Shown here: positions 8,513-24,593 of the stretch, piece after piece
Numbering within the stretch: position 1 is the stretch's first letter
Layout: each line of letters starts with the position of its first letter
Source: Candidatus Poribacteria bacterium
GTDB lineage: Bacteria > Poribacteria > WGA-4E > PCPOR2b
Reading direction: 5' to 3'
DNA: 64,000 bases
Assembly: GCA_965218095.1 (NCBI GenBank)
Contig: OZ244587.1
Coordinates: 3,264,001-3,328,000 of the forward strand
Position numbers and translations under genes: made by a program
The notes under the pieces: model-generated
The model's input: only the letters and a program-made list of their open reading frames with translations
Told to the model about the DNA's origin: nothing
Databases searched by the model: none

Positions 8513-8799
8513 CTACGCCCACGGCCTCTCCGGCGCTATCTCTATCCCTTCCGCTACGAGGTTTACCCTCACGATCTCCATCAACACGTGGGCTGCGTCC
8601 GACAGGTTCTCCGCCTGGCGTATCTGCGTCGCTGCTTCGGTCGGTTCGTTGTCTTCCAGGTAGTGTGTCAGATACCGCATCGCCTGTTTCGGTGGCATCT
8701 CCGACAGGTCCACGACCTGTTCCTGTATCGCTTCCTGTAGGCTGCTCGTCTGCTGCGCTTTCCTCGCCTGTTGGTCTAGCTCGTACTGTATCAGTACTA
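8513..8799 (-). pseudogene. 3' fragment of a hypothetical gene cut by the IS5 element
   Basis: Helical-looking frame (LVLIQYELDQQARKAQ...APERPWA*) that begins at the IS end. Confidence 0.35.
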
Positions 8800-9635
8800 G
8801 GTGCTGTTGACATTTCAAGGGAGCCATATAAGAGTGGAGACAAAGCTGAGAAATCCAAAATAACGGACAGCTAACTTCTCGAACCGAGAGAAGATGCGGC
8901 GATACCATTTTATCTTGTTAATGAAACATTCAACCCGATGTCTCTCTTTGTACAGATGTTTGTCGTAATCTCTTTGATCCACACGATGACTTTTGGGCGG
9001 TATCACCGCAATCGCTCCATTTGCCTCAATAACGGCAATAAAATTGTCGGAGTCATATCCCTTGTCTCCAATCACATACTCGCTTTTATATCCAAGTATC
9101 AACGCTTCTGCTTCCGCTATGTCGTTTCTTTGACCGGGCGTCAGATGTATTCTTAGTGGATTACCCAGGACGTCAACGGTGATGTGAATTTTTGTACTGA
9201 ATCCCCCGCGAGAGCGACCTAACGCTTGGTTTTCAGTGCCACCCTTTTTTTTAAGGTGCCCGCTTTTTAAGGTGCCCGCCGCACACGGGTGCGCTCGAAT
9301 GATTGTACTGTCCACAATAAGCGACTCGATATCGGGGTCGGTGGCGAAGTGGGGATGCATCTGTGTGAAGACCCCTTTGTCGCACCACCGAGCAAACTGC
9401 TTATAGAGGGTGTTCGATTTACCATAGGTGTCTGGCAGAATCCGCCATTGAGCACTGCTACGGGTCGCCCAGAGAACCGCTTCGATAAAGCGGCGTGTTG
9501 TCGCTTCGTTGCCAACATAGATGGTGGGACAGCTAAGAAGAAACCGGTATATCTTATTCCATTGTTCATCAGGTAAGGTTATTGGCATCATTCTTCTATT
9601 ATGCCACAACCTTATACTCAAATGTCAACAGAACC
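8800..9635 (-). mobile_element. IS5-family (IS427-like) insertion sequence
   Basis: TIRs GGTGCTGTTGACATTT and AAATGTCAACAGAACC, each flanked by (C)TA(G), giving a TA duplication at 8798-8799 and 9636-9637. Confidence 0.9.
8815..9591 (-). CDS. IS5-family transposase, fused into a single ORF
   Basis: RRFIEAVLW...WRILP, IVDSTIIRAHPCAAG, LGRSRGGFSTKIH, GDKGYDSD and RHRVECFINKIK motifs. Confidence 0.92.
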   Translation of the reverse strand: MMPITLPDEQWNKIYRFLLSCPTIYVGNEATTRRFIEAVLWATRSSAQWRILPDTYGKSNTLYKQFARWCDKGVFTQMHPHFATDPDIESLIVDSTIIRAHPCAAGTLKSGHLKKKGGTENQALGRSRGGFSTKIHITVDVLGNPLRIHLTPGQRNDIAEAEALILGYKSEYVIGDKGYDSDNFIAVIEANGAIAVIPPKSHRVDQRDYDKHLYKERHRVECFINKIKWYRRIFSRFEKLAVRYFGFLSFVSTLIWLP

Positions 9636-9653
9636 TAGCACAAGTCGTTAATT

Positions 9654-11753: not shown

Positions 11754-12137
11754 TGAGGAGAAACACAGTCATTCTCCAGTACCCGAGCCGTTCAATAATC
11801 TCTCAGCCCGCCATCCGGGGCAATCAGCGCCGGACGGTCATAAGGTTGCGGCGGGTAATGTTTGAAGGCCTCTTCATTATCAATGATAAACTGACACTTT
11901 TGCCATCACGACGCAAATTTGGAGGAACTCGTAAACCGACTGAATTTAACCCGATTTAATATTGCGCGTTTTTCACCGATATGCTATAATCGGGTTTCCA
12001 ATTGCTTGGTTAAGTAATTTTCAGTATTAAGTATTTTATAAATAGTTTGTTTAACTTTCAGTCCAGGGACTCCGCTCCTGGCACGGATCCATGTAGATGA
12101 AAGAAATTATAACTTACTTAAACTATACATTCCGTTT

Positions 12138-12205
12138 GTAGTCGCGCAATTGATTGCGCGTTTGGGACAGCGATGAATCGTTTCACTACAAACCATTACT
12201 TTCTT
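12138..12205 (+). repeat. GTAG-type REP doublet (REPIN); left boundary of the R-M island
   Basis: GTAGTCGCGCAATTGATTGCGCG...GCGATGAATCGTTTCACTAC followed by AAACCATTACTTTCTT. Homologs at 12786, 19970 and 24494. Confidence 0.8.
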
Positions 12206-12211
12206 TCTGAT

Positions 12212-12470
12212 ATGGCGCGAAGGAAGCGCACATCCCAAGAAACAGAAATCCAAGATTACCGACACGAGGCCGCCACCCGAAAGAACAATCCACCTGTGGG
12301 CATCGCCTCACACGGCGTAATCCGCGAAACACCGAAGCAGAAATACGCCTACAACCCCACCTGCCGCCAAGTCTACCGCCCTGCAGCAGATGTTGAGAGC
12401 ATCTCCACGCTATGGTATAATCCGAAGCCGTGTGGAATGTGTAACAGACCGTTGCCGGTGATCAGGTGTT
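12212..12470 (+). repeat. Truncated mod 5' copy 1 plus shared promoter tail
   Basis: Encodes DYRHEAATRKNNPPVGIASH...YAYNP, matching the mod N-terminus at 16381-16496. 12251-12470 matches 14694-14914 with 10 differences by manual count. Confidence 0.9.
12393..12421 (+). promoter_or_regulatory. sigma70-like promoter in repeat copy 1
   Basis: TTGAGA-17 bp-TATAAT with a TGn extension. Identical copy at 14837-14865. Confidence 0.65.
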
Positions 12471-12734
12471 TTTGACTTCGCTCAGTCTTTTTCCGGTGTG
12501 ATGGGCATCGGTAGGCCTGTCCTTGGATGCGAGTGGGTGTGCTAAGTTGTAATCCACACCTTGCGTGACGCGGACAACGCCCTTTGAAGTGGCAACAAGG
12601 CGGTCATATTCTGCTAAAAGCCGATGGTTGATCTTCGGATTGTTTTTGATGGTAATCATGTCAGTTCTCTCTGAAGTCTTCTTTCCGACATCCTCTGCTG
12701 GAGAGGGAATAAGGGATTGGCATGAGTTTCTCAT
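12462..12734 (-). CDS. Small hypothetical protein (90 aa), paralog of 14906-15232
   Basis: AGGAGG RBS. Shared NNPKI...RLVA.SKG.VRV.QG.DY.L.HPL motif. Confidence 0.7.
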   Translation of the reverse strand: MRNSCQSLIPSPAEDVGKKTSERTDMITIKNNPKINHRLLAEYDRLVATSKGVVRVTQGVDYNLAHPLASKDRPTDAHHTGKRLSEVKNT

Positions 12735-12757
12735 TGTAAACCTCCTTATAATTATAT

Positions 12758-12873
12758 GATAACCCAAGTTGCTACTCTTTGGTTAGTAGTAGCGCAATTC
12801 ATTGCGCGTTCTTCTGTTCTTCTTTGCGTCCTTGCGTTCTATTTTTCTTATCAAGGTAGCAACTCGGATTATA
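12758..12873. repeat. TA-terminated MITE-like element containing a nested REP
   Basis: Inverted ends TAACCCAAGTTGCTAC and GTAGCAACTCGGATTA. Internal REP GTAGTAGCGCAATTCATTGCGCG at 12786-12808. Confidence 0.55.
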
Positions 12874-12955
12874 ATATCATGATTTTGCATTTAATACCAG
12901 CATTTTATGCTCACCACTAACGAATATGCTTGATTTTAATATCTGAGATAATCTC

Positions 12956-14113
12956 ATGGCTGAATACATTCAAGGGATTAATCCCACCATAGTCAAGTGG
13001 GCGAGAGAACGCTCAGGATACACCCTGCGAGAAGTCGCCAAATTCTTCAAGAAGAATGTCGAAACCATTGCCAATTGGGAGTCTGGGGCAGCTGCGCCGA
13101 CTTATGTTCAACTTGAAAAGCTGGCTGACAAATACAAACGACCCGTCGCCATGTTCTTCTTCCCGGAACCTCCCAATGAGACCGATTTTGTGGGACAACT
13201 TGCACTGCGAAGCTCCGAAATTGAGCAACTGGATCCAGGTATCCGTATTCTGTTGCGTCAGGCATACGCAAGGCAACTTTCATTGATGGAACTGAACATG
13301 GACGTGAATCCTGTAGAAACAAAAATTTTCCGCGATCTTCACCCCCAACTTGGCGACTCACCAACAGAGTTGGCACAACAAACCCGAGCGTACTTGGACA
13401 TAAGCGTTGACACGCAAGCAGGCTGGAATAGCGCGAAAGAAGCACTCGGAAATTGGCTAGAAAGTGTTGAGGAAAAAGGTATCTTCGTTTTTAAGGCTGC
13501 CTTCCAAAACGACTCCGTTGATGGCTTTTGTCTCGTCCACGAGCAGTTTCCTGTTATCTACCTCAACAATAGTAGATCGTCTGTCAGACAGATTTTCTCA
13601 CTCTTTCATGAGTTAGCTCATCTCTTACTCGGTGAGAATGGTATAACACGAGGCATCAACCCTGTAGGTGAGCAAATTGAGGTCTTTTGCAACCAATTTG
13701 CTGCTGAATTTCTGGTGCCGTCTGGCGATCTGGAACCCCGACTCAGCTATCCGGTTTACAATGACGCTGCAATAGAGGAGTTGGCAAGTTACTATAAGGT
13801 GAGTCGTCCTGTCATTCTGCTGAGACTGATTAATCAGGGCACCCTCAAACAAAACAGCTACAGGCGGAGGGCCGCCCGATGGACTGAAGAGTACGAATCC
13901 CGCCTAGAAGGAAGGGCAGGAGGTGAATCCCCAGGCGGAGGAAACTATTATAACACCCACGCAGTGTATTTAGGATACAAATTTATAGAACTTGCGTTCA
14001 GCAGATATCATCAGGGACAGTGTTCAATGGAAGAACTTGCAGAACATCTGAGCGTCAAGGCTAAAAACTTGCCTGGTCTCGAAGATTGCCTATTGAGGAA
14101 GATAACCCGCTAA
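12956..14113 (+). CDS. XRE-HTH plus ImmA/IrrE family metallopeptidase
   Basis: N-terminal HTH (WARERSG...WESG..PT..QL). RQIFSLFHELAH (HExxH) and EVFCNQFAAEFLVP. Confidence 0.9.
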   Translation: MAEYIQGINPTIVKWARERSGYTLREVAKFFKKNVETIANWESGAAAPTYVQLEKLADKYKRPVAMFFFPEPPNETDFVGQLALRSSEIEQLDPGIRILLRQAYARQLSLMELNMDVNPVETKIFRDLHPQLGDSPTELAQQTRAYLDISVDTQAGWNSAKEALGNWLESVEEKGIFVFKAAFQNDSVDGFCLVHEQFPVIYLNNSRSSVRQIFSLFHELAHLLLGENGITRGINPVGEQIEVFCNQFAAEFLVPSGDLEPRLSYPVYNDAAIEELASYYKVSRPVILLRLINQGTLKQNSYRRRAARWTEEYESRLEGRAGGESPGGGNYYNTHAVYLGYKFIELAFSRYHQGQCSMEELAEHLSVKAKNLPGLEDCLLRKITR

Positions 14114-14583
14114 TGGCTTACGTATTTGACACCAACAGTTTTAGGGTGCTTGGGAACTACTATCCTGAACAATTTCCAACTTTTTGGGAAAAATTCAATC
14201 AGGCAGTAACCTTTGGAAAGATAATCTCTGTGAGAGAGACCCGCAGGGAACTAGAGTTCCAAGTACATCATCCCCATTTATTTGATTGGGTGAAAGATTA
14301 CGGACATCTTTTTTTGTCCCCTCGACCAGCGGAAATGCAGTTCGTCAGTGATATTTTTTCTGTTTCACATTTCCAAACGTTAGTGAATGCGAAAACTCGT
14401 TTACTCGGCCAACCGTGTGCAGATCCGTTTATTATCGCAAAAGCGAAGTTCATAGATGGTTGTGTTGTCACAGAAGAAAAGTGGAAGCAAAACGCTGCGA
14501 AAATCCCGAACGTTTGTGAGCATTTTGAGGTGGACTGCACAAACCTCCAAGGGTTCATGGAAAGAGAGGGTTGGACGTTCTAA
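14113..14583 (+). CDS. DUF4411 family PIN-like nuclease
   Basis: YVFDTNSF, F..FW, ADPFIIAKA, VVTEE and KIPNVC motifs. TAATG coupling to the upstream gene. Confidence 0.85.
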   Translation: MAYVFDTNSFRVLGNYYPEQFPTFWEKFNQAVTFGKIISVRETRRELEFQVHHPHLFDWVKDYGHLFLSPRPAEMQFVSDIFSVSHFQTLVNAKTRLLGQPCADPFIIAKAKFIDGCVVTEEKWKQNAAKIPNVCEHFEVDCTNLQGFMEREGWTF

Positions 14584-14648
14584 CTTTGCTCGGTATTGAC
14601 AAGCAACAAATCCCTAACCCCGGAAACTCAGAAGAAGGAAAGAAAGAT

Positions 14649-14914
14649 ATGGCACGAACGAAACGCCCTGCCAAAAAGCAGGAAACCGAAACCCAAGATT
14701 ACCGGCACGACGACGCCACCCGAAAGAACAACCCGCCTGCGGGCATCGCCTCACACGGCGTAATCCGCGAAACACCGAAGCAGGAATACGCCTACAACCC
14801 CCACCTGCCGCCAAGTCTACCGCCCTGCAGCAGATGTTGAGAGCATCTCCACGCTATGGTATAATCCGAAGCCATGTGGAATGTGTAACAGACCTTTGCC
14901 GGTGATCAGGTGTT
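14649..14914 (+). repeat. Truncated mod 5' copy 2 (ORF 14649-14840) plus shared promoter tail
   Basis: MARTKRPAKKQETETQDYRHDDATRKNNPPAGIASH...YAYNPHLPP followed by a stop. Has its own purine-rich RBS. Confidence 0.9.
14837..14865 (+). promoter_or_regulatory. sigma70-like promoter in repeat copy 2
   Basis: TTGAGA-17 bp-TATAAT. Confidence 0.65.
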
Positions 14915-15232
14915 CTTAGCTTCGCTTAGGCTTTTTCCAATCTCACGGGGATCAGTGGACACGTCATTGGATCCAAGTGGATGTGACAGATGGTAATCTG
15001 CACCTTGTACGACGCGGACAATACCTTTTGAAGCAGCAACAAGGCGTTCATATTCCTCAGTCACACGGTAGAATTCTGATAAAAGTTCATGGTCAATCTT
15101 CGGATTGTTTTCGACAGTAATTGTGTTAACCCTTTGTTCGTGCGGTGTAGAAACCTCTACAGCTCTCTCAGAAGTCTTATCTCTGACATCCTCTGTTGAA
15201 AAGGAGATAAGGGATTGGCGTGAGTCCTTCAT
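14906..15232 (-). CDS. Small hypothetical protein (108 aa) directly downstream of the SDH protease
   Basis: AAGGGGG RBS, 21 bp after the protease stop codon. Paralog at 12462-12734. Confidence 0.72.
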   Translation of the reverse strand: MKDSRQSLISFSTEDVRDKTSERAVEVSTPHEQRVNTITVENNPKIDHELLSEFYRVTEEYERLVAASKGIVRVVQGADYHLSHPLGSNDVSTDPREIGKSLSEAKNT

Positions 15233-15253
15233 TGTGAACCCCCTTGTCTTTGA

Positions 15254-16108
15254 TCAGAAGTATTTGCAGGTGTGCACAAACGAGCCTCCTTGAATATAAT
15301 CTTTGAGCAGCCCAACGTAGTTATCAAGAACAAGGGAGAGGTTGGGGGTATCTTCCAACTTCTCGATTTTCAAGTTTATGTCCGGATCCGAGGTTAGTAT
15401 GTCTCTGGAAATCATGCGTCCATGAGAATGCCAACGTTCATTATCACTCAACATAGCTGCAATCTCTTTTGCTCTTTGCTTCTTTTCATCTTCCGTCACA
15501 GTTGCTCCAGTTGAACTGTGGGTCTTCCAGTTCTTGAACTTATAGGTGGAGAGCCATTGAGTCAAAAGATCGTGCGACAACTGGCGTGCTTGTTCAAATT
15601 GGTCAAGCTCACCCAAGTCAAGTTTGTTGAGAAGCACCAGTTCGGCAGTGTTCAACTCGCCAGCCTCCGCTTTTGCGTGCAGCCGCTGATACTGGTTTAA
15701 ATACGACAAGGCTGGAACAAGTTTTTCGTCCTTCACAATTTGGGGATCGATGGGCCCCAAACACGAAAAGTAGCCCATGAAGATCCGGTCGCCCGCCATC
15801 ACGAAAACTGTACCGGCGGACATGGCTCGGTCAGGGATCAGGAAGTCAACTGCAGCATAGTAGTGGCGAATAACAGACACGATACGTTCAACTACTTCGA
15901 CTATGCCACCAGGCGTGTCTAAGACAATCGCTATTCTGGACTTTCGTTTTTGGAACGACTCAACAGCACTCCTTACTCTATTCTCTAAACCGTACAATAT
16001 CGGACTGAAGATTGTAAGCGCGTCTGCTTTGAGAATTTTTTCAATCTTGCCGAGATACTTATTGAGTTGGGTATTTGTGTGATGATCGACCGGGCGGAGT
16101 GTTACCAT
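15254..16108 (-). CDS. SDH-family ClpP-class serine protease
   Basis: LDTPGG, AMSAGT (catalytic Ser), LGPIDPQI and WHSHGRMI motifs. Confidence 0.88.
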   Translation of the reverse strand: MVTLRPVDHHTNTQLNKYLGKIEKILKADALTIFSPILYGLENRVRSAVESFQKRKSRIAIVLDTPGGIVEVVERIVSVIRHYYAAVDFLIPDRAMSAGTVFVMAGDRIFMGYFSCLGPIDPQIVKDEKLVPALSYLNQYQRLHAKAEAGELNTAELVLLNKLDLGELDQFEQARQLSHDLLTQWLSTYKFKNWKTHSSTGATVTEDEKKQRAKEIAAMLSDNERWHSHGRMISRDILTSDPDINLKIEKLEDTPNLSLVLDNYVGLLKDYIQGGSFVHTCKYF

Positions 16109-16161
16109 AGTTTTTCTGATTGGGCTAAATCGCCTCCTTAGTTTTAAAGGGTTTATATGGT

Positions 16162-16248
16162 ATAATGATATTATGATATCATAAGATATTATTATATCAT
16201 AATTTGGCACTATATGCCATAATTTGGCACTATATGCCGTAATTTGGC
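16162..16248. repeat. Tandem operator-like repeats in the divergent protease/mod promoter region
   Basis: GATATTA(TG/TT)ATATC twice, then a 20-bp unit containing AATTTGGCACTATATGCC at 16201 and 16221 with a partial third copy at 16241. Confidence 0.8.
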
Positions 16249-16338
16249 CCTTTGTACCAGCGAAAATTTTATACTCACCACCAGCATCCGAAACCACTTT
16301 AGGGGCGTGGACCCCTAGCCCTATAAGGAAACAATTTA

Positions 16339-19281
16339 ATGCCAAAAAATCCCCAAAAATCTAACGAGAAAGGCGTCGAAGATTACCGGCACGACGCTGC
16401 CACCCGAAAGAACAACCCGCCCGCGGGCATCGCCTCACATGCGAAAATCCGCGAAAAACCGAAGCAAGAATACGCCTACAACCCCCACCTGCCGCCGTGC
16501 CTGCAATTCGACGAAAACGGCGACGCCGACCAACTCCCCGAATTGCTCGAAAAGGCGCGACATAAACCGCTCTCCGCCGATGAGGTGCAAATCCTCGCAG
16601 AGGCACTGAGACACCACGGTCCATGGATCGAATGGGCGGGCAAACAGGAGGCGGAATCGTTCGCTGTCGATCCGGTTGCGTTGCACATCCACGAGCGGGT
16701 AAGTACGAAAGCCATTGTGAAAGTGGCAGAGCGGGAAAACGTCCAACGCGAGCTCTTTGCCGACCCGCAGCAAGAATACCGGGAGGCAGTGCAGTTTTAC
16801 CAACACGATGTGGATTGGACGAACCGCCTCATCTTGGGCGATAGCCTCACCGTGATGAGTTCTTTGGCACGACGTGAAGACCTCGCGGGCAAAGTCCAGA
16901 TGATTTACATCGATCCACCCTACGGCATCAAGTTCGCCTCAAACTTTCAACCCACTGTCTTCCAGCGTGATGTGAAGGAAAAACCGGCTGACCTGACCCG
17001 CGAACGGGAGCAGATTAAAGCCTACCGCGATACGTGGACCCTCGGCGTTCACTCCTACCTCGCCTACCTCCGCGACCGGCTGATTGTCGCCAAAGAGTTA
17101 TTGACCGATAGCGGTAGCATCTTTGTGCAGATCGGTGATGAGAATATTCATCGGGTGCGATGTCTAATGGATGAGGTATTTGGGGCAGAAAATTTTATAG
17201 CCCTCATTCCATTTCAGACAACAACCGGGCTTCAAAGTCGTTACCTTAAAGGTGTCTATGACCTTATTATTTGGTATGCAAGAGAAAAAGCAAATATGAA
17301 GTACAAGCAACTTTACTTAGAAAAACAAACAGGGGCGAATACATATTATGACTATATGAAGTTACCAAACGGATCAATTCAGAAAACGCAAGAGAGCGAA
17401 GAAATCCCTGATAACTGGCAGATATTCTCACCTCAACCTCTTGTTTCAGGTGCATACTCAGAAACGACAACTTTTGAGTTTCCTCATAACAATACTTTAT
17501 ATCATCCCGGTAGAAATAGGTGCTGGAAGACTACTCCTGAAGGAATGAAAAGATTATCAAAGTCTGAAAGAATATTTGCATCTACTAAAACATTGAAATT
17601 CATTCGCTATGCTAATGATTTCCTTGTTACAGAGATATCAAATCTTTGGACAGATGCGATGAGTCTCATTGGCAAAAAATATGTTGCTGAAACAGTCCCT
17701 AAAATTATTGAGCGTTGTATGTTAATGGTGACAGAGCCCGGCGATCTGGTTCTTGATCCGACTTGCGGTAGTGGTACGACTGCTTACGTTGCTGAACAAT
17801 GGGGTAGACGCTGGATTACTATTGATACTAGTCGCGTTGCTATCACATTAGCACGCCAAAAACTTCTTACCGCGAATTTCAATTACTATCAACTCAAAGA
17901 CGGATTAGAAGGAGTTTCAGGTGGCTTTGTCAACAAAACGGTCCCGCATATCACCCTCAAAAGCATTGCTCAAAATACTGCACTTGATCCGATATTCGCA
18001 AAATATGAGCCGATTCTCGCGGAAAAGTTAGAAACCCTCAATCTTGCCCTAGCAGAGGTTACGCCAGAGATTCGGACTAAACTCCGTTCCAAACTTGCGA
18101 CGAGGGAACGGAGCAAAGGGAAAAAGGCGGTCACGGATGTGGACCGACGGCGTTGGCAGCTCCCGAAAACGACGTGGCAGGAGTGGGAGGTGCCGTTTGA
18201 CACCGACCCCAATTGGCCCCTAGCGTTGAGTGAAGCATTAACCGATTATCGCGAGGCGTTCCGAGCAAAGATGAACGAAGTAAACGGCTGCATCGCCGCA
18301 TCTTCCGATGGCGAGGAATTGGTCGATCAGCCGGAGGTAGACAGAAAGAAGCTGCGGGTGAGTGGGCCCTTCACGGTGGAGGCGGTACAACCCGCTGAAG
18401 CATCACTCGACCCCGATTCACCCATCGGCGGTGAACCGGAAGAAGCACTGGACACATTCGAGTCTGACGACGTTGAGGGTGAACCCACTAACGCCGAAGC
18501 GTATCTTGATCAAATGATTCGTCTGCTGCGAAATGACGGTGTACGTTTTCCTGATAACCAGAAAATGAAATTCGCGGCACTCGATCCACTTGAGGATGAT
18601 ATTCTGCACGCCGAAGGGAGTTGGGAAGGTAACGATGCGGAGCGAAACGTAGCGGTAGTGTTTGGTCCACAGCACGGTCCCGTCACAGTGATGCAGGTTG
18701 AGGCGTGCTTGCCTATTGCGTCTCGGCGTGGATATGATGAACTAATCTTTGCTGGCTTCAGTTTCGACGGTGCGGCGCAAGCGGTTATCCGAGAGGACCC
18801 GCATCCAAGGGTCCGTATCCACATGGCACACATCAACCCCGACGTAACGATGGGCGACCTACTAAAGGAGACGCCTTCCAGTCAACTGTTCACTGTGTTT
18901 GGGGCGCCGCGCACAGCAATCGAAATGATAGGGAACGGTGAGTATATCGTCAAGATGGAGGGGGTGGATATTTACAACCCCGTAGAGAACACGGTGAGTT
19001 CTGCAGGCGGTGACAAGGTGGCGGCGTGGTTCCTTGACAGCGACTACGACGGTCGAACCTTCTGCATCACCCAAGCGTTTTTCCCCGACAAAAAGGCGTG
19101 GGACAAAATAGCGAGAGCACTCAAAGGCGTTATTGACCCAGAGCATTTTGAGAAGTTCAGTGGAACCGAATCGTTTCCGTTCCCTGCCGGGGAGCACCGG
19201 AGCGTCGCGGTCAAGGTGATTGACCCGCGGGGGAATGAGGTGATGCGGGTGCACGATTTGCGGGAGACAAGGTATGCTTGA
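16339..19281 (+). CDS. mod: Type III R-M DNA methyltransferase (Mod)
   Basis: NRLILGDSL, IYIDPPYG (motif IV) and VLDPTCGSGTT (motif I). C-terminal AVKVIDPRGNE. AT-rich TRD between the motifs. Confidence 0.93.
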   Translation: MPKNPQKSNEKGVEDYRHDAATRKNNPPAGIASHAKIREKPKQEYAYNPHLPPCLQFDENGDADQLPELLEKARHKPLSADEVQILAEALRHHGPWIEWAGKQEAESFAVDPVALHIHERVSTKAIVKVAERENVQRELFADPQQEYREAVQFYQHDVDWTNRLILGDSLTVMSSLARREDLAGKVQMIYIDPPYGIKFASNFQPTVFQRDVKEKPADLTREREQIKAYRDTWTLGVHSYLAYLRDRLIVAKELLTDSGSIFVQIGDENIHRVRCLMDEVFGAENFIALIPFQTTTGLQSRYLKGVYDLIIWYAREKANMKYKQLYLEKQTGANTYYDYMKLPNGSIQKTQESEEIPDNWQIFSPQPLVSGAYSETTTFEFPHNNTLYHPGRNRCWKTTPEGMKRLSKSERIFASTKTLKFIRYANDFLVTEISNLWTDAMSLIGKKYVAETVPKIIERCMLMVTEPGDLVLDPTCGSGTTAYVAEQWGRRWITIDTSRVAITLARQKLLTANFNYYQLKDGLEGVSGGFVNKTVPHITLKSIAQNTALDPIFAKYEPILAEKLETLNLALAEVTPEIRTKLRSKLATRERSKGKKAVTDVDRRRWQLPKTTWQEWEVPFDTDPNWPLALSEALTDYREAFRAKMNEVNGCIAASSDGEELVDQPEVDRKKLRVSGPFTVEAVQPAEASLDPDSPIGGEPEEALDTFESDDVEGEPTNAEAYLDQMIRLLRNDGVRFPDNQKMKFAALDPLEDDILHAEGSWEGNDAERNVAVVFGPQHGPVTVMQVEACLPIASRRGYDELIFAGFSFDGAAQAVIREDPHPRVRIHMAHINPDVTMGDLLKETPSSQLFTVFGAPRTAIEMIGNGEYIVKMEGVDIYNPVENTVSSAGGDKVAAWFLDSDYDGRTFCITQAFFPDKKAWDKIARALKGVIDPEHFEKFSGTESFPFPAGEHRSVAVKVIDPRGNEVMRVHDLRETRYA

Positions 19282-19405: not shown

Positions 19406-19520
19406 TGTCTGAATCACGGATTAAACAGATGACGCAGACGACACGGATTAAGAACCGATTGAACATTCGGATAAAAAATCCGCGAAATCCAATAATCCGC
19501 GCAAATCCGCGATTCAGACA
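19406..19520. repeat. Palindromic AATCCGCG-family element
   Basis: TGTCTGAATCACGGATT...AATCCGCGATTCAGACA inverted ends. The right half is repeated at 20233-20282. Confidence 0.75.
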
Positions 19521-19947
19521 CTCTCCAAGTTTGACAATTTCTCATACAATACAATCAGGAGGCAGAAAATGAATAAGAATCACGACAACCTTTGAGGGAG
19601 ACAATCTGCACCGTCAATCCTAACGACAACTGTTACGACGCCGCAAAATGGGATAAGCAATTCCGGGCTAATGCAGGCGAATTACCTCCGGGAACTGGAG
19701 AAGCGTTACCAACAACTGGCATCTAAGGCAGCGAGCGCATTGAACGCCGCGCATGACAGTCTGGAATCTACAATTCCATCCCTTAGCCCAAAAGAGCAAA
19801 TTTCACTTGTTCCAGGGGATTTGAGCGTTCAACTGCGTAAGTTCTACATATTAATCGTCAACGCAAATCTTTATCAGTTGTGCACGCCAACTTTTTTTTG
19901 CGTTGGCATTGTGTTGGCATTCTTTATGAAATACAACCCTAAATTCA

Positions 19948-20226
19948 TAGGACTTACGCAGTTCAGCTTGTAGTAGCGTAATTCATTGCGCGTCCGGACA
20001 GGCGATAAATCATCCTACTACAAATCTCGATGCCGTTGTCTTGATGCTTTGATGTAGGAAACAACGATCGTTGTTCCCTACGGAATCGGGGGTTCTCGGT
20101 AAGAATTTATTGTAATTGCCCGATTCATCGGGCGTTGTAGTACGGCGATGAATCGCCGCACTACAAGTTGCTTTGAATCCCGATCTCTGCATTGGGGGCT
20201 TTGAGCATTCGACTGCGTGAGTCCTA
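19948..20226. mobile_element. MITE-like element with TAGGACTTACGCA ends carrying several REP palindromes
   Basis: TAGGACTTACGCAGT and ACTGCGTGAGTCCTA ends. Internal REPIN at 19970-20021, GTAGG..CCTAC palindrome at about 20054-20079, and a REP pair at about 20112-20164. Confidence 0.65.
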
Positions 20227-20330
20227 ATTCTAATAAAAAATCCGCGAAATCCAATAATCCGCGCGAATCCGCGATTCAGACAGTTTCCAAGTCCAACAAC
20301 TCCTCATACAATATGATTGGGCAGCAGCAG

Positions 20331-21485
20331 ATGAGTAAGAACATGAAAAAATTTATAGCCTGCCTACTATTGGGGGCACTGCTAGGAATGATACCCCCTC
20401 TGTTGCCTGCACAGCAGAATCAAAACACGCAAAAGTCGAATCCGGAAATTGAAGCCCTTAAAAAACGGGTTTCGGAACTGGAACAACAGCTTCAGACTGT
20501 GGAAAATGTTGAGAAGATGGATCTTGCAAGAAACTACGCTGATGCAAAAGCGAAACTTATTAATGTGGATGTTGACAAGCTTAAGTGGGAATTGAGGGAT
20601 TCTAATCATAAATGGCTGACAGGATGGATTTTATTCTTCCTAGCGATTTTATCTGCTATTGGGGTAGGTGTTTGGTCTTGGCTTAAATCTAGAACTAATC
20701 AATTGATAGAGACTGAAGTTGAAAAGAATCTCAATGGGTTTAAGGAGGCTGTGGGCCAAGTAGACACACTGAAAAATCAACAAAAGGTATTAGAAAAAGA
20801 ACATGTAGCTGCTATGTTAGATAGTATTGCTGACAAACCCTATGGGCCCAGATATTCTTATCCTGAACGAATCAAAGCACTTTCTGAAGAAGCTCTTTTA
20901 TGGGTACTTGACGATGAAATATACGGTCGAGTAGTCAGATATCTGGCAGCAGAAGTTTTAGCTAATAGAAAATCTCCTCAATTGCCTTCTCTCTTGCTTA
21001 AATTCTTAAATTCAGTTGTTGATTGGGAAAAAGACCGACTTGAAACGTATACCTTTGCCCCACTTTCCCTGATACATTTTCTCGAAGAAATATACACGCA
21101 CGAGGTCTATCAAGGACTTAAAAGATTCCTCAACCGTTTATTGACAGAAAATCCAAAAAACAAGGATTTGTTCCTACCGGAGACAGTATCTTCACTCGCT
21201 GGAATTGGTGTTAAATTGAATATGGGAGACTCGGTTCCCATACTGAAAACAGCTATACCTCATTTGAAGAATCCAAGCCACAAGGTCCTAAGTGACTTAG
21301 CTAGGTATTTTGATATATTCAATGAACCAGCAGGTATAAAGGAAATCCTAATCAATCATGTAACAAGTGAGAGGTCTGGTATGGAGGAGGTAGAGAATAG
21401 ATGCTTAGAACTATTGCAAAAGTACGGTCCCGCGTTTGTAGCAGAATGGCGAGCAAGAGCAACAACAGATAACAGCAACGCATAA
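20331..21485 (+). CDS. Hypothetical membrane protein (signal peptide, coiled coil, TM helix, helical-repeat C-terminus) between mod and res
   Basis: MKKFIACLLLG signal peptide, EIEALKKRVSELEQQL coiled coil and WILFFLAILSAIGVGVW TM segment. Low GC. Confidence 0.75.
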   Translation: MSKNMKKFIACLLLGALLGMIPPLLPAQQNQNTQKSNPEIEALKKRVSELEQQLQTVENVEKMDLARNYADAKAKLINVDVDKLKWELRDSNHKWLTGWILFFLAILSAIGVGVWSWLKSRTNQLIETEVEKNLNGFKEAVGQVDTLKNQQKVLEKEHVAAMLDSIADKPYGPRYSYPERIKALSEEALLWVLDDEIYGRVVRYLAAEVLANRKSPQLPSLLLKFLNSVVDWEKDRLETYTFAPLSLIHFLEEIYTHEVYQGLKRFLNRLLTENPKNKDLFLPETVSSLAGIGVKLNMGDSVPILKTAIPHLKNPSHKVLSDLARYFDIFNEPAGIKEILINHVTSERSGMEEVENRCLELLQKYGPAFVAEWRARATTDNSNA

Positions 21486-21494
21486 GGATCCCTC

Positions 21495-24400
21495 ATGAAT
21501 CAAGACCAACTCGAAATCCCAATCCAACCCGTTGAACGTCCCATCCTGTGCAATCCCTATGAAGAACCGGACGCACATTGGGTTTACGATACTGAAACCG
21601 GCGAAGCGATCAAGCAGCCGGGCAGACGCGCTGCGGGGTACTGGTACAAAACACAACGCACAGGCAGTCAGCAACTCCAACTCTTTCAAGAAGAAGAGCG
21701 GGATGACCTGCCATTAGTCAATGCGCTGCGCGATGATGTCAGGAGATGGCGTGAATCAAATTACCGAAACGCAACGGTTGTGACGCGGGAATTGCTGCGC
21801 CACTGGACGCGAGAAGACAAGGAACGCCGCCTCTTTTTCTGTCAGTGTGAAGCGGTTGAAACGATCATATACATCGCCGAGATCCGGCAGGGGTGCAAAA
21901 AGACCGGCTTTAACCCGCAATTTACGAAGGCGGATCTCGCTAAATTGGTTGATTCTCCCAACACCCCTAACATCCCGGATCTAATCCGCTACGGCTGCAA
22001 AATGGCGACCGGCAGTGGCAAAACGGTGGTGATGGCGATGCTGATTGCGTGGGCGTTCTGCAATCGCGGGAAAGTGCCTTCCGATGAGCGTTTCCCCGCG
22101 GCGGCGTTGATCGTCTGTCCGAACCTGACAATCAAAGAACGGCTTCAGGTCTTGAGACCCGAATCCCCGGATAACTACTACGATGCGTTTGAACTCATCC
22201 CGACAAAACTCCGCCCCTTGCTCAACAAAGGGAAAGTGCTTGTGACCAACTGGCACCAATTCGCGCCGGAGTCCGCGCACAGCGAAGGTGGTCAAAGTTA
22301 CGCGGTCGTGAACAAAGGCGAAGAAACACCGGACGCCTTTGCAAAGCGCGTGTTGGGTGAACTACATGAACACGCTCCGATCATGGTGATGAATGATGAG
22401 GGACATCACGCCTACCGTCCCGCACCTACCGATGAAAAGCTATCCGCTAACGCCAAAAAGGGACGTCAAGATGCTACCGTCTGGATTAGCGGCTTGGACA
22501 CGATTAATCAAGCGTGCGGCATCCGTTTCTGTGTAGATCTCTCCGCCACGCCGTTTTATATTCAAAACAGTGGTCACCCGGAAGGCTCCCCCTTCCCGTG
22601 GCTCGTGAGCGATTTCGGGTTGGTGGACGCAATTGAGAGCGGCATCACGAAGATTCCCCGATTGCCGGTCAGCGATACGACGGGCAGACCTGAACCGAAA
22701 TTCTTCCGACTCTGGGAAGCAATTCAGGAAGAAATCCTGCCAGCGGATCGACTGCCGGGCAAAAAGCCGAAACCGGAGGCGGTCTATCGTGAGGCGGAAG
22801 ACGCACTTAACACCCTCGCCAGTCAGTGGAAAGAACGTTTTGAATACATCGAGCAGGCATCGGATGCCCAAGAGAAAACGCCCCCTGTAATGATCATTGT
22901 CTGCGACAACACCAATATCGCGGAGCACTTCTTTGAAAAAATCTCCGGCGAGGAGGTCGTTGAGTTTGATGTAGGGGCATCCCTTGTGGTTGCCCACAAC
23001 CAAGGAAAAGGAAAAAAGAAAAAACAGACCCAAACTGTCTACGGACAAGGGCAGGTATTTCCCGACATGCTATCAAACAGCGAAGGCATTTCACGAACCC
23101 TGCGAATTGATAGTAAAAAACTGGCTGAGGCGGAAAGCGAGAACCCACAAAAGAACAAGACGCAGGCAGCAGAGGACTTGCGTCGCGTGGTCGCAACAAT
23201 CGGAAAGCCGGGGCAGCCCGGGGAACAGATTCGATGCGTTGTGTCTGTGGCGATGCTGAACGAGGGGTGGGACGCGAATAACGTTACCCATATTCTGGGA
23301 CTACGCGCCTTCAGCAGCCAATTGCTCTGTGAGCAGGTGGTCGGGCGCGGATTGCGCCGCATGAATTACACGCCAGACCCGGAAACCGGGCTGTTGACCG
23401 AGGAATATGTCGATGTATACGGCATCCCGTTTTCTGTGATTCCATTCAAGGGACGCCCTAAGAACAAGCGTGAGCCCATTGACAAACCGAAAAACCACGT
23501 CCGGGCGATGCCAGAGCGGGAAAAGGACTTTGAGATAAGATTTCCCATTGTTGAAGGATACGTTTTCGCACTTCAAAAAGATGAAATCAAGGCAGATATT
23601 AAAGCGATTGAACCGCTGATCCTTGAACCGGAATACACACCGACCGCCGTTTTTGTCAAACCAACAGCCGGCTATGAAATCGGTTTGCCAACCACCTTAC
23701 GCCCCGGTCCAGCTATACTTCAAGACCGCGAAGAATATTACAAGGCAACACACATTCAAGCCATCAAGTTTGAGATCTCCCGCCGGATCATTACGGCATT
23801 AGTCGGTGATCGTGAAAACCAGCCAGATCCAAATAGCAATCCTAAACTTCGGCTGCAATCTCGACACCGGTTGTTCCCTCAAGTATTCAGGTTGGTTGAT
23901 AACTATGTGGAAACAAAGGTAGATCTTCGCTATTGTCATCCGTGCGAGCTCGGACAAGAAAAATATGTAATTCGTATCGTTGAACGGCTTATTGCTGCGA
24001 TTCAGCCCAATGAGACACAGGGTGAAATTCCACTAATGCCTATCTTGAACCGTTACAAACCGATTGGTTCATCATCAGAAGTAGACTTTATGACCGCGCG
24101 TCCTTGTCAGGGGACACAACGGAGTCATATTAATCAGGTTGCGCTGGACACTCAGACATGGGAACGCGCTGCTTGCTTTGGACTAGAGCAATCTGAGGTT
24201 GTGGCGTACTATGTTCGGAACGATCATCTGGGGTTCGGCATTCCGTATGAGTATACCGGCGCTTCTCACAGTTATGAACCGGATTTTATCGTCCACCTCA
24301 AGAACGGTGTCAACCTAATTTTGGAAATCAAGGGCTTTGAAACCGAGCAAGACCGTGCCAAACATACCGCTGCTAGACGGTGGGCATCCGCAGTCAGTAA

Positions 24401-24497
24401 CTGGGGAAGGCTTGGAAAATGGGAGTTTTATCCTTGCAAAGACCCTCAACGGATGCGGCACGAATTGGCGTTTTTAGGACGTAGTAGCGGTTCGTAG
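21495..24497 (+). CDS. res: Type III R-M restriction subunit (Res; SF2 helicase plus PD-(D/E)XK nuclease)
   Basis: KMATGSGKT, DEGHH, SATP, EGWD, QVVGRGLRR and YEPDFIV...LEIKG motifs. Confidence 0.93.
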   Translation: MNQDQLEIPIQPVERPILCNPYEEPDAHWVYDTETGEAIKQPGRRAAGYWYKTQRTGSQQLQLFQEEERDDLPLVNALRDDVRRWRESNYRNATVVTRELLRHWTREDKERRLFFCQCEAVETIIYIAEIRQGCKKTGFNPQFTKADLAKLVDSPNTPNIPDLIRYGCKMATGSGKTVVMAMLIAWAFCNRGKVPSDERFPAAALIVCPNLTIKERLQVLRPESPDNYYDAFELIPTKLRPLLNKGKVLVTNWHQFAPESAHSEGGQSYAVVNKGEETPDAFAKRVLGELHEHAPIMVMNDEGHHAYRPAPTDEKLSANAKKGRQDATVWISGLDTINQACGIRFCVDLSATPFYIQNSGHPEGSPFPWLVSDFGLVDAIESGITKIPRLPVSDTTGRPEPKFFRLWEAIQEEILPADRLPGKKPKPEAVYREAEDALNTLASQWKERFEYIEQASDAQEKTPPVMIIVCDNTNIAEHFFEKISGEEVVEFDVGASLVVAHNQGKGKKKKQTQTVYGQGQVFPDMLSNSEGISRTLRIDSKKLAEAESENPQKNKTQAAEDLRRVVATIGKPGQPGEQIRCVVSVAMLNEGWDANNVTHILGLRAFSSQLLCEQVVGRGLRRMNYTPDPETGLLTEEYVDVYGIPFSVIPFKGRPKNKREPIDKPKNHVRAMPEREKDFEIRFPIVEGYVFALQKDEIKADIKAIEPLILEPEYTPTAVFVKPTAGYEIGLPTTLRPGPAILQDREEYYKATHIQAIKFEISRRIITALVGDRENQPDPNSNPKLRLQSRHRLFPQVFRLVDNYVETKVDLRYCHPCELGQEKYVIRIVERLIAAIQPNETQGEIPLMPILNRYKPIGSSSEVDFMTARPCQGTQRSHINQVALDTQTWERAACFGLEQSEVVAYYVRNDHLGFGIPYEYTGASHSYEPDFIVHLKNGVNLILEIKGFETEQDRAKHTAARRWASAVSNWGRLGKWEFYPCKDPQRMRHELAFLGRSSGS
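22971..22995 (+). repeat. REP palindrome inside the res coding sequence
   Basis: GTAGGGGCATCCCTTGTGGTTGCCC (GTAG followed by a GGGCA..CC/GG..TGCCC stem), read as VGASLVVA. Confidence 0.6.
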
Positions 24498-24593
24498 TAG
24501 CGCAATTGATTGCGCGTTTGGGATGGTGATGAATCATCCCGCTACACGGGATCTCGCTACGCTAGAGACCTCACTACAAACCATTACTTTCTT
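24494..24593 (+). repeat. REPIN copy at the right boundary of the R-M island, with a nested 32-bp insertion
   Basis: Direct repeat of 12138-12205, including the CACTACAAACCATTACTTTCTT tail. Confidence 0.8.

Follow-up and report, generated by a model that had tools for sequence, protein, structure and literature searches.

The DNA analysed here (the window) is a stretch of 64,000 nucleotides, positions 3,264,001 to 3,328,000 of contig OZ244587.1, from a Candidatus Poribacteria genome that is assembled as a single 6.35-Mb contig (G000; other genomes are numbered likewise). It holds a type III restriction-modification (R-M) operon in which the 5' end of the methyltransferase gene, mod, occurs in three direct copies with putative defence genes between them. 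The copies start at window positions 12212, 14649 and 16339, and the D codon at the head of the shared segment lies at 12254, 14697 and 16381, respectively. An earlier note on this DNA had reported three direct copies behind distinct N-termini of 14-16 codons, only the third continuing into the gene, and all of this was confirmed. The N-termini of copies 1, 2 and 3 are MARRKRTSQETEIQ, MARTKRPAKKQETETQ and MPKNPQKSNEKGVE, respectively, and intact Mod continues from the third copy only. Chance likeness is excluded by BLAST E values of 1e-40 and 2e-31 for the mod copies and 5e-134 for the block shared by copies 1 and 2, and no further mod 5' copy was found elsewhere in the 6.35-Mb genome.

Gene starts, junctions and modules at the mod locus

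The two upstream copies are stubs that leave mod at the same base, after PPSL (12376 and 14820), which is after codon 55 of intact Mod and not at 12368, where the fragment had previously been thought to end. The end is placed here because relatives read PPSLRF or PPSLQF after YAYNPHL. The stub allele (PPSL) differs from that of copy 3 (PPCLQF) and, judged by these residues, the stubs derive from a mod allele other than copy 3. Copy 1 has no visible ribosome-binding site (RBS) before its ATG at 12212, and a REP-like repeat lies 1-2 bases before this ATG; an RBS is present ahead of copies 2 and 3. That the REP copies at both ends of the island are a unique target duplication was ruled out by the 15-31 copies of this repeat. 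Between the stub break and the orfA stop codon lie 88 bp of non-mod DNA, the junction-right segment (JR), and JR1 and JR2 are 98% identical. The identical TTGAGA-17-TATAAT promoter reported before is indeed present in both and can be extended to TTGAGA-17-TG-n-TATAAT, with 11/12 consensus positions (12393 and 14837). Neither the rest of G000 nor any of 175 other genomes gave a real match that could be the source of JR, and two matches of 24-25 nt at E 0.003-0.009 were judged chance; JR had 0 matches in metagenome contigs (24-mer), and peptides encoded by it had no real match in a six-frame search of the genome and 135 loci.

Module 1, between copies 1 and 2, consists of orfA1, a REP-filled gap, HTH-ImmA and DUF4411, and module 2, between copies 2 and 3, consists of orfA2 and the SDH protease. 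Each module ends in its own mod start and RBS, in agreement with the proposal that each cassette brings a replacement mod start. The Pfam families of the cargo that had been described as defence-type, HTH-ImmA/IrrE with DUF4411 and the SDH protease, were confirmed. It was also correct that the adjoining small open reading frames are more diverged and have indels: the orfA paralogues differ by 33- and 21-nt in-frame indels, with 52% protein identity and synonymous (dS) and nonsynonymous (dN) divergences of 0.51 and 0.23 (dN/dS about 0.44). The function of orfA had no Pfam, PADLOC or NCBIfam match and no atlas match of at least 0.9; its best atlas score, 0.88, came with low recognition and was set aside, and its two metagenome matches are weak (44% over 42 aa). 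For orfA1, PADLOC and NCBIfam gave no family, and a 101-aa reading of it had no Pfam match. DUF4411 lies directly downstream of the fused HTH-DUF955 gene, as in putative toxin-antitoxin modules; the part of PMC5499597 that deals with these families describes HTH-DUF955/DUF4411 as a putative toxin-antitoxin arrangement and DUF4411 proteins as potential toxins. The modules contain no integrase, in keeping with the integrase-free gain or loss that the earlier note inferred. The closest tyrosine recombinase (PF00589) is about 200 kb away, there are 8 tyrosine-recombinase matches in the genome, and a short open reading frame with a recombinase zinc-ribbon domain, probably a remnant, lies 10 kb to the left (2151-2465).

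The operon is a type III R-M system of the BPTD_3080 subfamily: Mod has both methyltransferase motifs (DPPY at 192 and DPTCGSGTT at 473), mod and res form an operon, and Res scores above the NCBIfam cut-off. The variable region of Mod, of low GC, is at about 17220-17720. The swapping of Mod N-termini that had been proposed would concern a basic tail of 14-16 residues away from this region and would change the promoter and RBS, not the specificity. Among the relatives of the SDH protein in named genomes, 7/10 are Candidatus Poribacteria (64-85% band). Neither identity nor GC gave a signal of horizontal origin, as the R-M genes and cargo are 76-89% identical to those of genus g4 (DUF4411 about 69-74%) and the neighbouring core genes 79-88%.

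Table 1. Features of the mod locus, in window coordinates
Feature	Position	Strand	Remarks
REP-like dispersed repeat in the RBS/promoter place of copy 1	12134..12210	.	15-31 near copies genome-wide; tail also at 24571
mod 5' copy 1, pseudo-start	12212..12376	+	Frameshift, one C missing at 12354
Homogenised tract, copy 1; partner 14741-14914	12298..12470	+	3 substitutions and 1 indel in 173 bp; longest perfect match 75 bp
Junction-right segment JR1, sigma-70-like promoter 12393-12421	12377..12464	+	
orfA1, 90 aa, paralogue of SDH partner	12462..12734	-	Protein 52% identical to orfA2; SDH gene missing
28-nt inverted repeat around REP-like copy, at expected SDH place	12748..12883	.	Joint resembles remnants in G019 and G015
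HTH-ImmA/IrrE (M78) fusion, putative antitoxin/regulator	12956..14113	+	Pfam PF06114, PF01381; RmrA-like E 2e-31; HELAH motif at residue 218
DUF4411 PIN-like protein, putative toxin	14113..14583	+	PF14367
DUF4411-to-mod spacer with RBS, native 'A-type' upstream	14584..14648	+	72-92% identical (first codons included) to pre-mod spacer in 7 relatives
mod 5' copy 2, A-type start joined to copy-1-type right half	14649..14820	+	Stop after 62 codons
Junction-right segment JR2, promoter 14837-14865	14821..14908	+	2 differences from JR1
orfA2, 108 aa, conserved partner downstream of SDH	14906..15232	-	Homologues follow SDH in relatives
SDH-type ClpP-fold serine protease, 285 aa	15254..16111	-	PF01972 E 3.5e-14
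Divergent promoter region and RBS of copy 3, 'B-type' upstream	16112..16338	+	Homologous pre-mod spacer in G027, G021
mod copy 3, intact type III Mod, 980 aa	16339..19281	+	PADLOC MTase_III E 1e-171
Gene between mod and res, start may be later	20217..21485	+	Present at many related loci
Res, BPTD_3080 family	21495..24497	+	NF046055, 958 bits vs cut-off 800

Mosaic divergence and the origin of the array

Copies 1 and 2 had been said to share a 220-bp block with 10 differences. This count holds over 12251-12470 (9 substitutions and one base deleted at 12354), but the near-identity is limited to the 173-bp tract 12298-12470. Substitutions between the copies number 9/38 in the N-terminal codons (24%), 6/46 in the left part of the mod segment (13%), 3/173 in the tract and 61/264 in orfA (23%). 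With borders chosen from the data, the tract differs from the left part of mod at p=0.003 and from orfA at p=1e-11 (Fisher), and in permutations the best low-divergence tract was matched in 0/60. In its right half, copy 2 is 2 differences away from copy 1, against at least 7 from copy 3 and from each of 11 relatives. At its 5' end it matches intact mods of another genus with 87-89% identity, and therefore this start was functional until recently; the spacer with the first codons is up to 92% identical to the 'A-type' of genus g4. Thus two upstream regions with different N-termini lead into one near-identical tract, and the crossover in the mod 5' segment that the earlier note postulated is supported. 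The mosaic and the affinities of copy 2 together make it likely that the junction of stub and JR was made once and was recently moved from one to the other of two older alleles, with crossovers in the mod start and at the orfA end.

A probable explanation, to which we assign a probability of about 0.6, is that the array is real and arose by integrase-free stacking of alleles through homologous recombination that reused a broken mod start. A one-off illegitimate event, probably with a homologous anchor at its other end, would have joined the mod start, after codon 55, to foreign flank DNA (JR) and so have given the order mod start, JR, orfA and, further on, mod. Sister alleles, as the mosaic suggests, would have kept this junction and differed in cargo, one being orfA1-ImmA-DUF4411-mod with the A start and the other orfA2-SDH-mod with the B start; both look like deletion derivatives of orfA-SDH-ImmA-DUF4411-mod. 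The working mod start of one allele would then have paired with the pseudo-start of the other, which would give the mosaic copy 2 and bring the modules into tandem; the crossover itself is shown by the sequence of copy 2. The DNA may have entered by transformation, and ComEC and DprA are present in G000.

The divergence to the left of the tract (24%) and to its right (about 23%) is alike, and this also fits an old duplication in tandem, or a tandem of two entire R-M loci that was later cut down by deletion, with differential loss of accessory genes and a recent conversion of 173 bp, so that decay only would have shaped the array. We regard such an origin as unlikely. A copy 2 start that is still so close to the intact mods of another genus and retains its RBS is unlike an old pseudogene, and the dN/dS of about 0.44 between orfA1 and orfA2 also speaks against it.

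If alleles were stacked, further recombination between the copies would unstack them. A crossover of copy 1 with copy 2 (75-bp perfect match) would drop the ImmA-DUF4411 module, a loss that a toxin-antitoxin effect may oppose; copy 2 with copy 3 (29 bp) would drop the SDH module and give Mod the A start; and copy 1 with copy 3 (17 bp) would be rare and would likely silence mod. The read evidence consists of assembled contigs, from which rare variants drop out. Among the contigs of four runs no copy-to-copy deletion joint is listed at 96% likeness; the excision between copies that had been predicted was thus not seen, which, given such drop-out, does not show its absence. A joint of 14812 to 16570 at 85% likeness was discounted, with undetermined letters in between. 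The coverage holes of X5, X6 and X7 over 14983-16366 at 96% are no proof of a deletion either, X6, from the sample of X5, being without cover where X5 has it.

Sponge metagenomes are among the sequencing runs that match the locus. Contigs of study P1 cover most of the array with zero differences, including 14844-15560 (JR2, orfA2 and SDH) and 14309-14674 (DUF4411 to the start of copy 2). In X2 the contigs end at 12400 and 14844, which are equivalent points, as would be expected from two JR copies, and one low-depth X2 contig joins 16271 to 12918, the SDH side to ImmA, at about 99% identity; by these weak read data it is a third allele. A contig of X5, from another study, is unbroken over 12342-12835 at 99%, has the C at 12354 and no frameshift, and is a hint, again from weak read data, of an allele with one junction; it has 27-28 letters on the mod side of the point where copies 1 and 3 diverge and is not counted as a bridge to the upstream flank. 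Four of the five substitutions in its orfA1 change the protein, as expected if an orphaned gene drifts. Another X5 contig, of 802 bases, is identical to the window for 115 bases of conserved mod (17060-17174) and then departs, which suggests that a close strain has a different mod specificity region.

These contigs bear on whether the array is a chimera, in which the assembly joined the alleles of two co-occurring strains at the mod segment that they share. The likely source study seems to contain several alleles side by side and, among the contigs listed, none spans copy 2 with both flanks. A chimera is nevertheless very improbable: the genome is one 6.35-Mb contig and, provided that the assembly is based on long reads, a repeat of 120-170 bp should not have misled it, copy 2 shows a mosaic of single-nucleotide differences of its own, the zero-difference contigs cover both intervals named above, and like stacks are present in other single-contig genomes (G021, G017, G013 and G027).

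mod and hsdM loci across the phylum

Homologues of SDH are present in 33/176 and of ImmA in 69/176 genomes of the phylum, often immediately upstream of this mod. We surveyed 65 mod loci from 56 genomes, chosen non-randomly from the top, partial and SDH matches; 60 with at least 6 kb upstream were retained and 5 were dropped. In the genome survey 4-10 candidates were scored per genome, and the counts of multiple copies are lower bounds. The 60 loci have neither module (30), the ImmA type only (11), SDH/orfA only (12) or both (7). Both modules are standing, phylum-wide neighbours of this R-M family, and the two modules are alleles of one upstream interval because there are single-module loci, remnants of orfA and the B spacer in G019, and the join of the SDH side to ImmA in X2. 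The G019 remnants suggest an ancestral order orfA-SDH-ImmA-DUF4411-mod that was trimmed by deletions. That alleles with one module and their own mod start exist naturally supports the stacking of alleles, and that the modules match such alleles with their own spacers is at odds with the old duplication. On the other hand, the G019 remnants as a deletion from a longer order, the internal mod deletions that are common among the loci (G107, G110 and G142), and the five loci where the modules stand together without fragments would fit such a duplication.

A comparable stack is present in 1/59 other loci. In G021 the order is flank gene, ATPase, orfA, SDH, mod stub, flank-gene copy, ImmA, DUF4411 and intact mod; the stub is broken at codon 34, and behind it the final 76 bp of the left-flank gene are repeated at 93% identity, with a few bases of microhomology at the join. 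This is an independent stack with a different breakpoint and with the module order reversed compared to G000. Across genomes mod is broken at codons 33, 34, 37, 55, 65 and 93, with lone truncations at 33, 37, 65 and 93. In two g11 genomes, G033 and G045, the start of res is joined to the end of mod between mod and res, at different breakpoints (L024:19368-19755 and L034 oriented 17986-18146), which repeats the geometry of the G021 stack in the next interval along the operon. An apparent internal mod duplication in G170 was rejected, since it is an inserted transposase-like element of a family recognised by eye. Insertions at residue 476 of mod, inside DPTCGSGTT, were seen at L028:4030-8117 and L030:3960-7751 (minus strand) and also at L038 and L049; in G018 and G019 the insertion is in frame, has a DUF559 domain and is intein-like by appearance.

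Because the breakpoints vary and JR is unmatched in 175 genomes, the sequences show neither a fixed site within mod nor an element end that is conserved. The modules might still be non-autonomous elements inserted in tandem at a fixed mod site by a recombinase acting in trans, like SXT/R391 at the 5' end of prfC, with JR as the left element end. The same breakpoint and the 98% identical JR in both copies, the new mod start that each module brings, the 8 tyrosine-recombinase matches in the genome, the hsdM junction that eight genomes have in common (see below), and GCCGCC at or beside both junctions would be in keeping with this. It is quite improbable, however, as JR is unmatched though the modules are widespread, mod breaks anywhere between codons 33 and 93, no integrase lies in the modules and the nearest tyrosine recombinase is about 200 kb off, the DNA after the hsdM junction is the end of a chromosomal gene and not of an element, and the high-identity tract reaches 79 bp into mod, as a homologous crossover predicts.

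There are 15 pairs of low-copy direct repeats 1-6 kb apart in G000, of which two are the mod copies and at least two others consist of the 5' part of a defence gene, cargo and the intact gene. At L109:1800-5959 a 157-bp 5' piece of an AAA ATPase gene (HEC-03B-like) is followed by a type I methylase gene and the intact ATPase gene; at the equivalent place in the g4 genomes the ATPase gene comes directly after the flank gene (the empty arrangement). The type I locus of G000 (L113:2398-8544) has an hsdM stub, genes of a cyclic oligonucleotide-based antiphage signalling system (CBASS) with an HTH-M78 regulator, and intact hsdM.

The hsdM start was matched in 89/176 genomes, and a second start lies 1.5-6.3 kb upstream in G000, G022, G017, G027, G016, G009, G015 and G013, the last having three copies. 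In 8/176 genomes (G000, G014, G017, G022, G013, G016, G009 and G027; regions L113 and L116-L123) the stub stops at one common point and runs on into a duplicate of a PhyH 3' end, the PhyH gene being the left neighbour of the hsdM locus in g4. The junction is at an 11-bp microhomology, GGGA(C/T)GCCGCC, with 10 of 11 bp matching. A locus has 1, 2 or 3 hsdM starts (one start in 9/18 family loci); G013 and G015 have a second junction in common, and G014 has the stub and no intact hsdM in the stretch covered. The cargo is CBASS-type in G000, G017 and G014 (the cyclase being unmatched in G014) and contains Argonaute in G022, G013, G016, G009 and G027, where the G022 protein was scanned and the others were assigned by likeness of the open reading frame start. 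The earlier note had expected variable copy number and cargo at the same mod locus; these do vary among relatives, but the full pattern of one junction with both varying is seen at hsdM instead. In G000 the PhyH gene lies 0.86 Mb from the hsdM locus, and therefore the flank copy likely came with the cargo; this copy, foreign to its site, is a further point against the old duplication. The hsdM fragments are closer to the intact hsdM of their own genome than under random pairing (sum 67 vs mean 87, p=0.006, 7 genomes; 0.036 without G022). The geometry of an R-M gene start joined to a copy of the 3' end of the left flank is common to mod in G021 and hsdM in the eight genomes, and at hsdM it has been kept while the cargo differs. 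Homology-facilitated illegitimate recombination, which de Vries and Wackernagel are said to have described in 2002 as single laboratory events with one homologous anchor and a GC-rich microhomology join, would duplicate a gene start in a single step, with a join like the 11-bp hsdM overlap. It reportedly differs in that the events were single ones and not a persistent, reused junction.

Further repeats were seen in the window and elsewhere in G000. Window positions 19465-19579 and 20227-20341 are an 83% repeat over the promoter and start of the gene preceding res, with a multi-copy element in between, and are possibly another duplicated gene start. At L115:2300-5600, within the nuo operon, a 116-bp duplicate of the 3' end of the NADH dehydrogenase 30-kDa subunit gene surrounds a pair of HNH genes, after which come DarT-like and NADAR genes. 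L110 and L111 (G000 1376559/1379568 and 1853571/1857818) are intergenic direct repeats of 178 and 184 bp, 95% identical, around 3-4 kb of small genes. An IS5-family transposase with 22-nt terminal inverted repeats lies at 8794-9641 of the window, 2.5 kb left of the array.

Weight of the evidence and comparison with known systems

Several observations weigh against the stacking of alleles on a reused junction, besides the like divergence on both sides of the tract and the lack of a deletion joint. The stack is rare at mod, with one mod start in 57/60 loci, and G107, the third case with multiple copies, is a duplicate of an internally deleted mod. In 5/7 loci with both modules there is a single mod start and no fragment, orfA being without SDH in 3 of those five, and G008 carries an Argonaute-type set before hsdM without a fragment; the anchor is therefore not required. 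JR would be of 'foreign flank' origin by analogy with the other junctions, and its source was not found in G000 or the 175 genomes. ComEC and DprA are present in control genomes too, and competence is not thereby shown. The hsdM cases are kin, of one family and 7/8 in one genus, and for 2/7 hsdM fragments (G016 and G009) the nearest hsdM is not that of their own genome. The proposal of the earlier note, taken as a dedicated system of serial cassettes at mod, is not supported, since the modules are phylum-wide neighbours, most of the double loci lack a fragment and the breakpoints differ. The mod array is a rare and probably transient scar.

We compared the array with the parts of the cited papers that describe each arrangement. 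Furuta et al. 2010 (PMC2853133) describe R-M insertion with long target duplication, mostly in naturally competent species, and propose excision and amplification through the repeats. The likeness is in R-M-linked DNA between direct repeats of more than 30 bp and varying length without mobile-element genes, and in the present case the repeats are 118-121 bp and the inserts 2.4 and 1.7 kb (<20 kb), with no mobile-element genes. There, however, the R and M genes are the insert, whereas here the mod start is the repeat and the inserts have no R and M, only accessory genes and a mod stub; here there are also up to three copies, and one junction is reused. That class would also have an empty allele with one target copy in a conspecific genome; single-copy alleles were seen in other genera, and the X5 contig is only a hint of an allele with one junction.

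In the hotspots of flank recombination described in 2017 (PMC5635113), housekeeping recombination and flanking homology suffice, defence genes are enriched and the cargo varies, as here; the difference is that there an allele is replaced, whereas here a fused junction of right-flank start and left-flank end adds DNA and leaves repeats of the gene start. The Staphylococcus aureus lpl cluster (Tsuru & Kobayashi 2008, PMC2568036) has a unit of 3' open reading frame, intergenic DNA and 5' open reading frame whose end likewise falls within the 5' part of the following gene; N-termini are shuffled, and units gained or lost, through crossovers in a conserved segment of the genes, and illegitimate events explain exceptions. 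That cluster consists of whole paralogues without foreign cargo, unlike the dead 5' stubs with unrelated genes between them. The SXT/R391 arrays at the prfC 5' end (PMC2786100) and the tRNA-anchored additive islands (PMC4119200) resemble the array in tandem modules at a gene end, duplicated target fragments and RecA hybrids, but they have an integrase and a fixed site, whereas the modules have neither an integrase nor a conserved site in mod. An integron, with intI, attI and promoterless cassettes bounded by attC, does not fit either: the locus has no integrase, the repeats are coding gene starts, and the modules have their own spacers and RBS. In the open-access literature, apart from the supplements of PMC2853133, which may list such cases, there was no description of repeated R-M gene starts with cargo stacked between them, in agreement with the earlier note, which knew of no description.

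It is possible, and we put this forward tentatively, that Poribacteria hold heritable 'adapter' junctions, made of a dead R-M start and a copy of the left flank, which would act as additive, integrase-free landing pads, so that any adapter-bearing allele could be stacked ahead of the working gene and be removed again by RecA alone, and that CBASS, Argonaute, toxin-antitoxin and protease modules would cycle by means of them through type I and type III loci, across chromosomal sites and genera. This concerns how defence islands grow without an integrase or transposase, where recombination from flank to flank explains replacement and not accretion. A reusable fused junction would be a simple additive route with a searchable signature, an R-M gene's 5' stub that runs into a copied 3' end of the left neighbour, and the hsdM series, with eight genomes, one junction, two cargo types and 1-3 starts, opens this idea to phylogeny.

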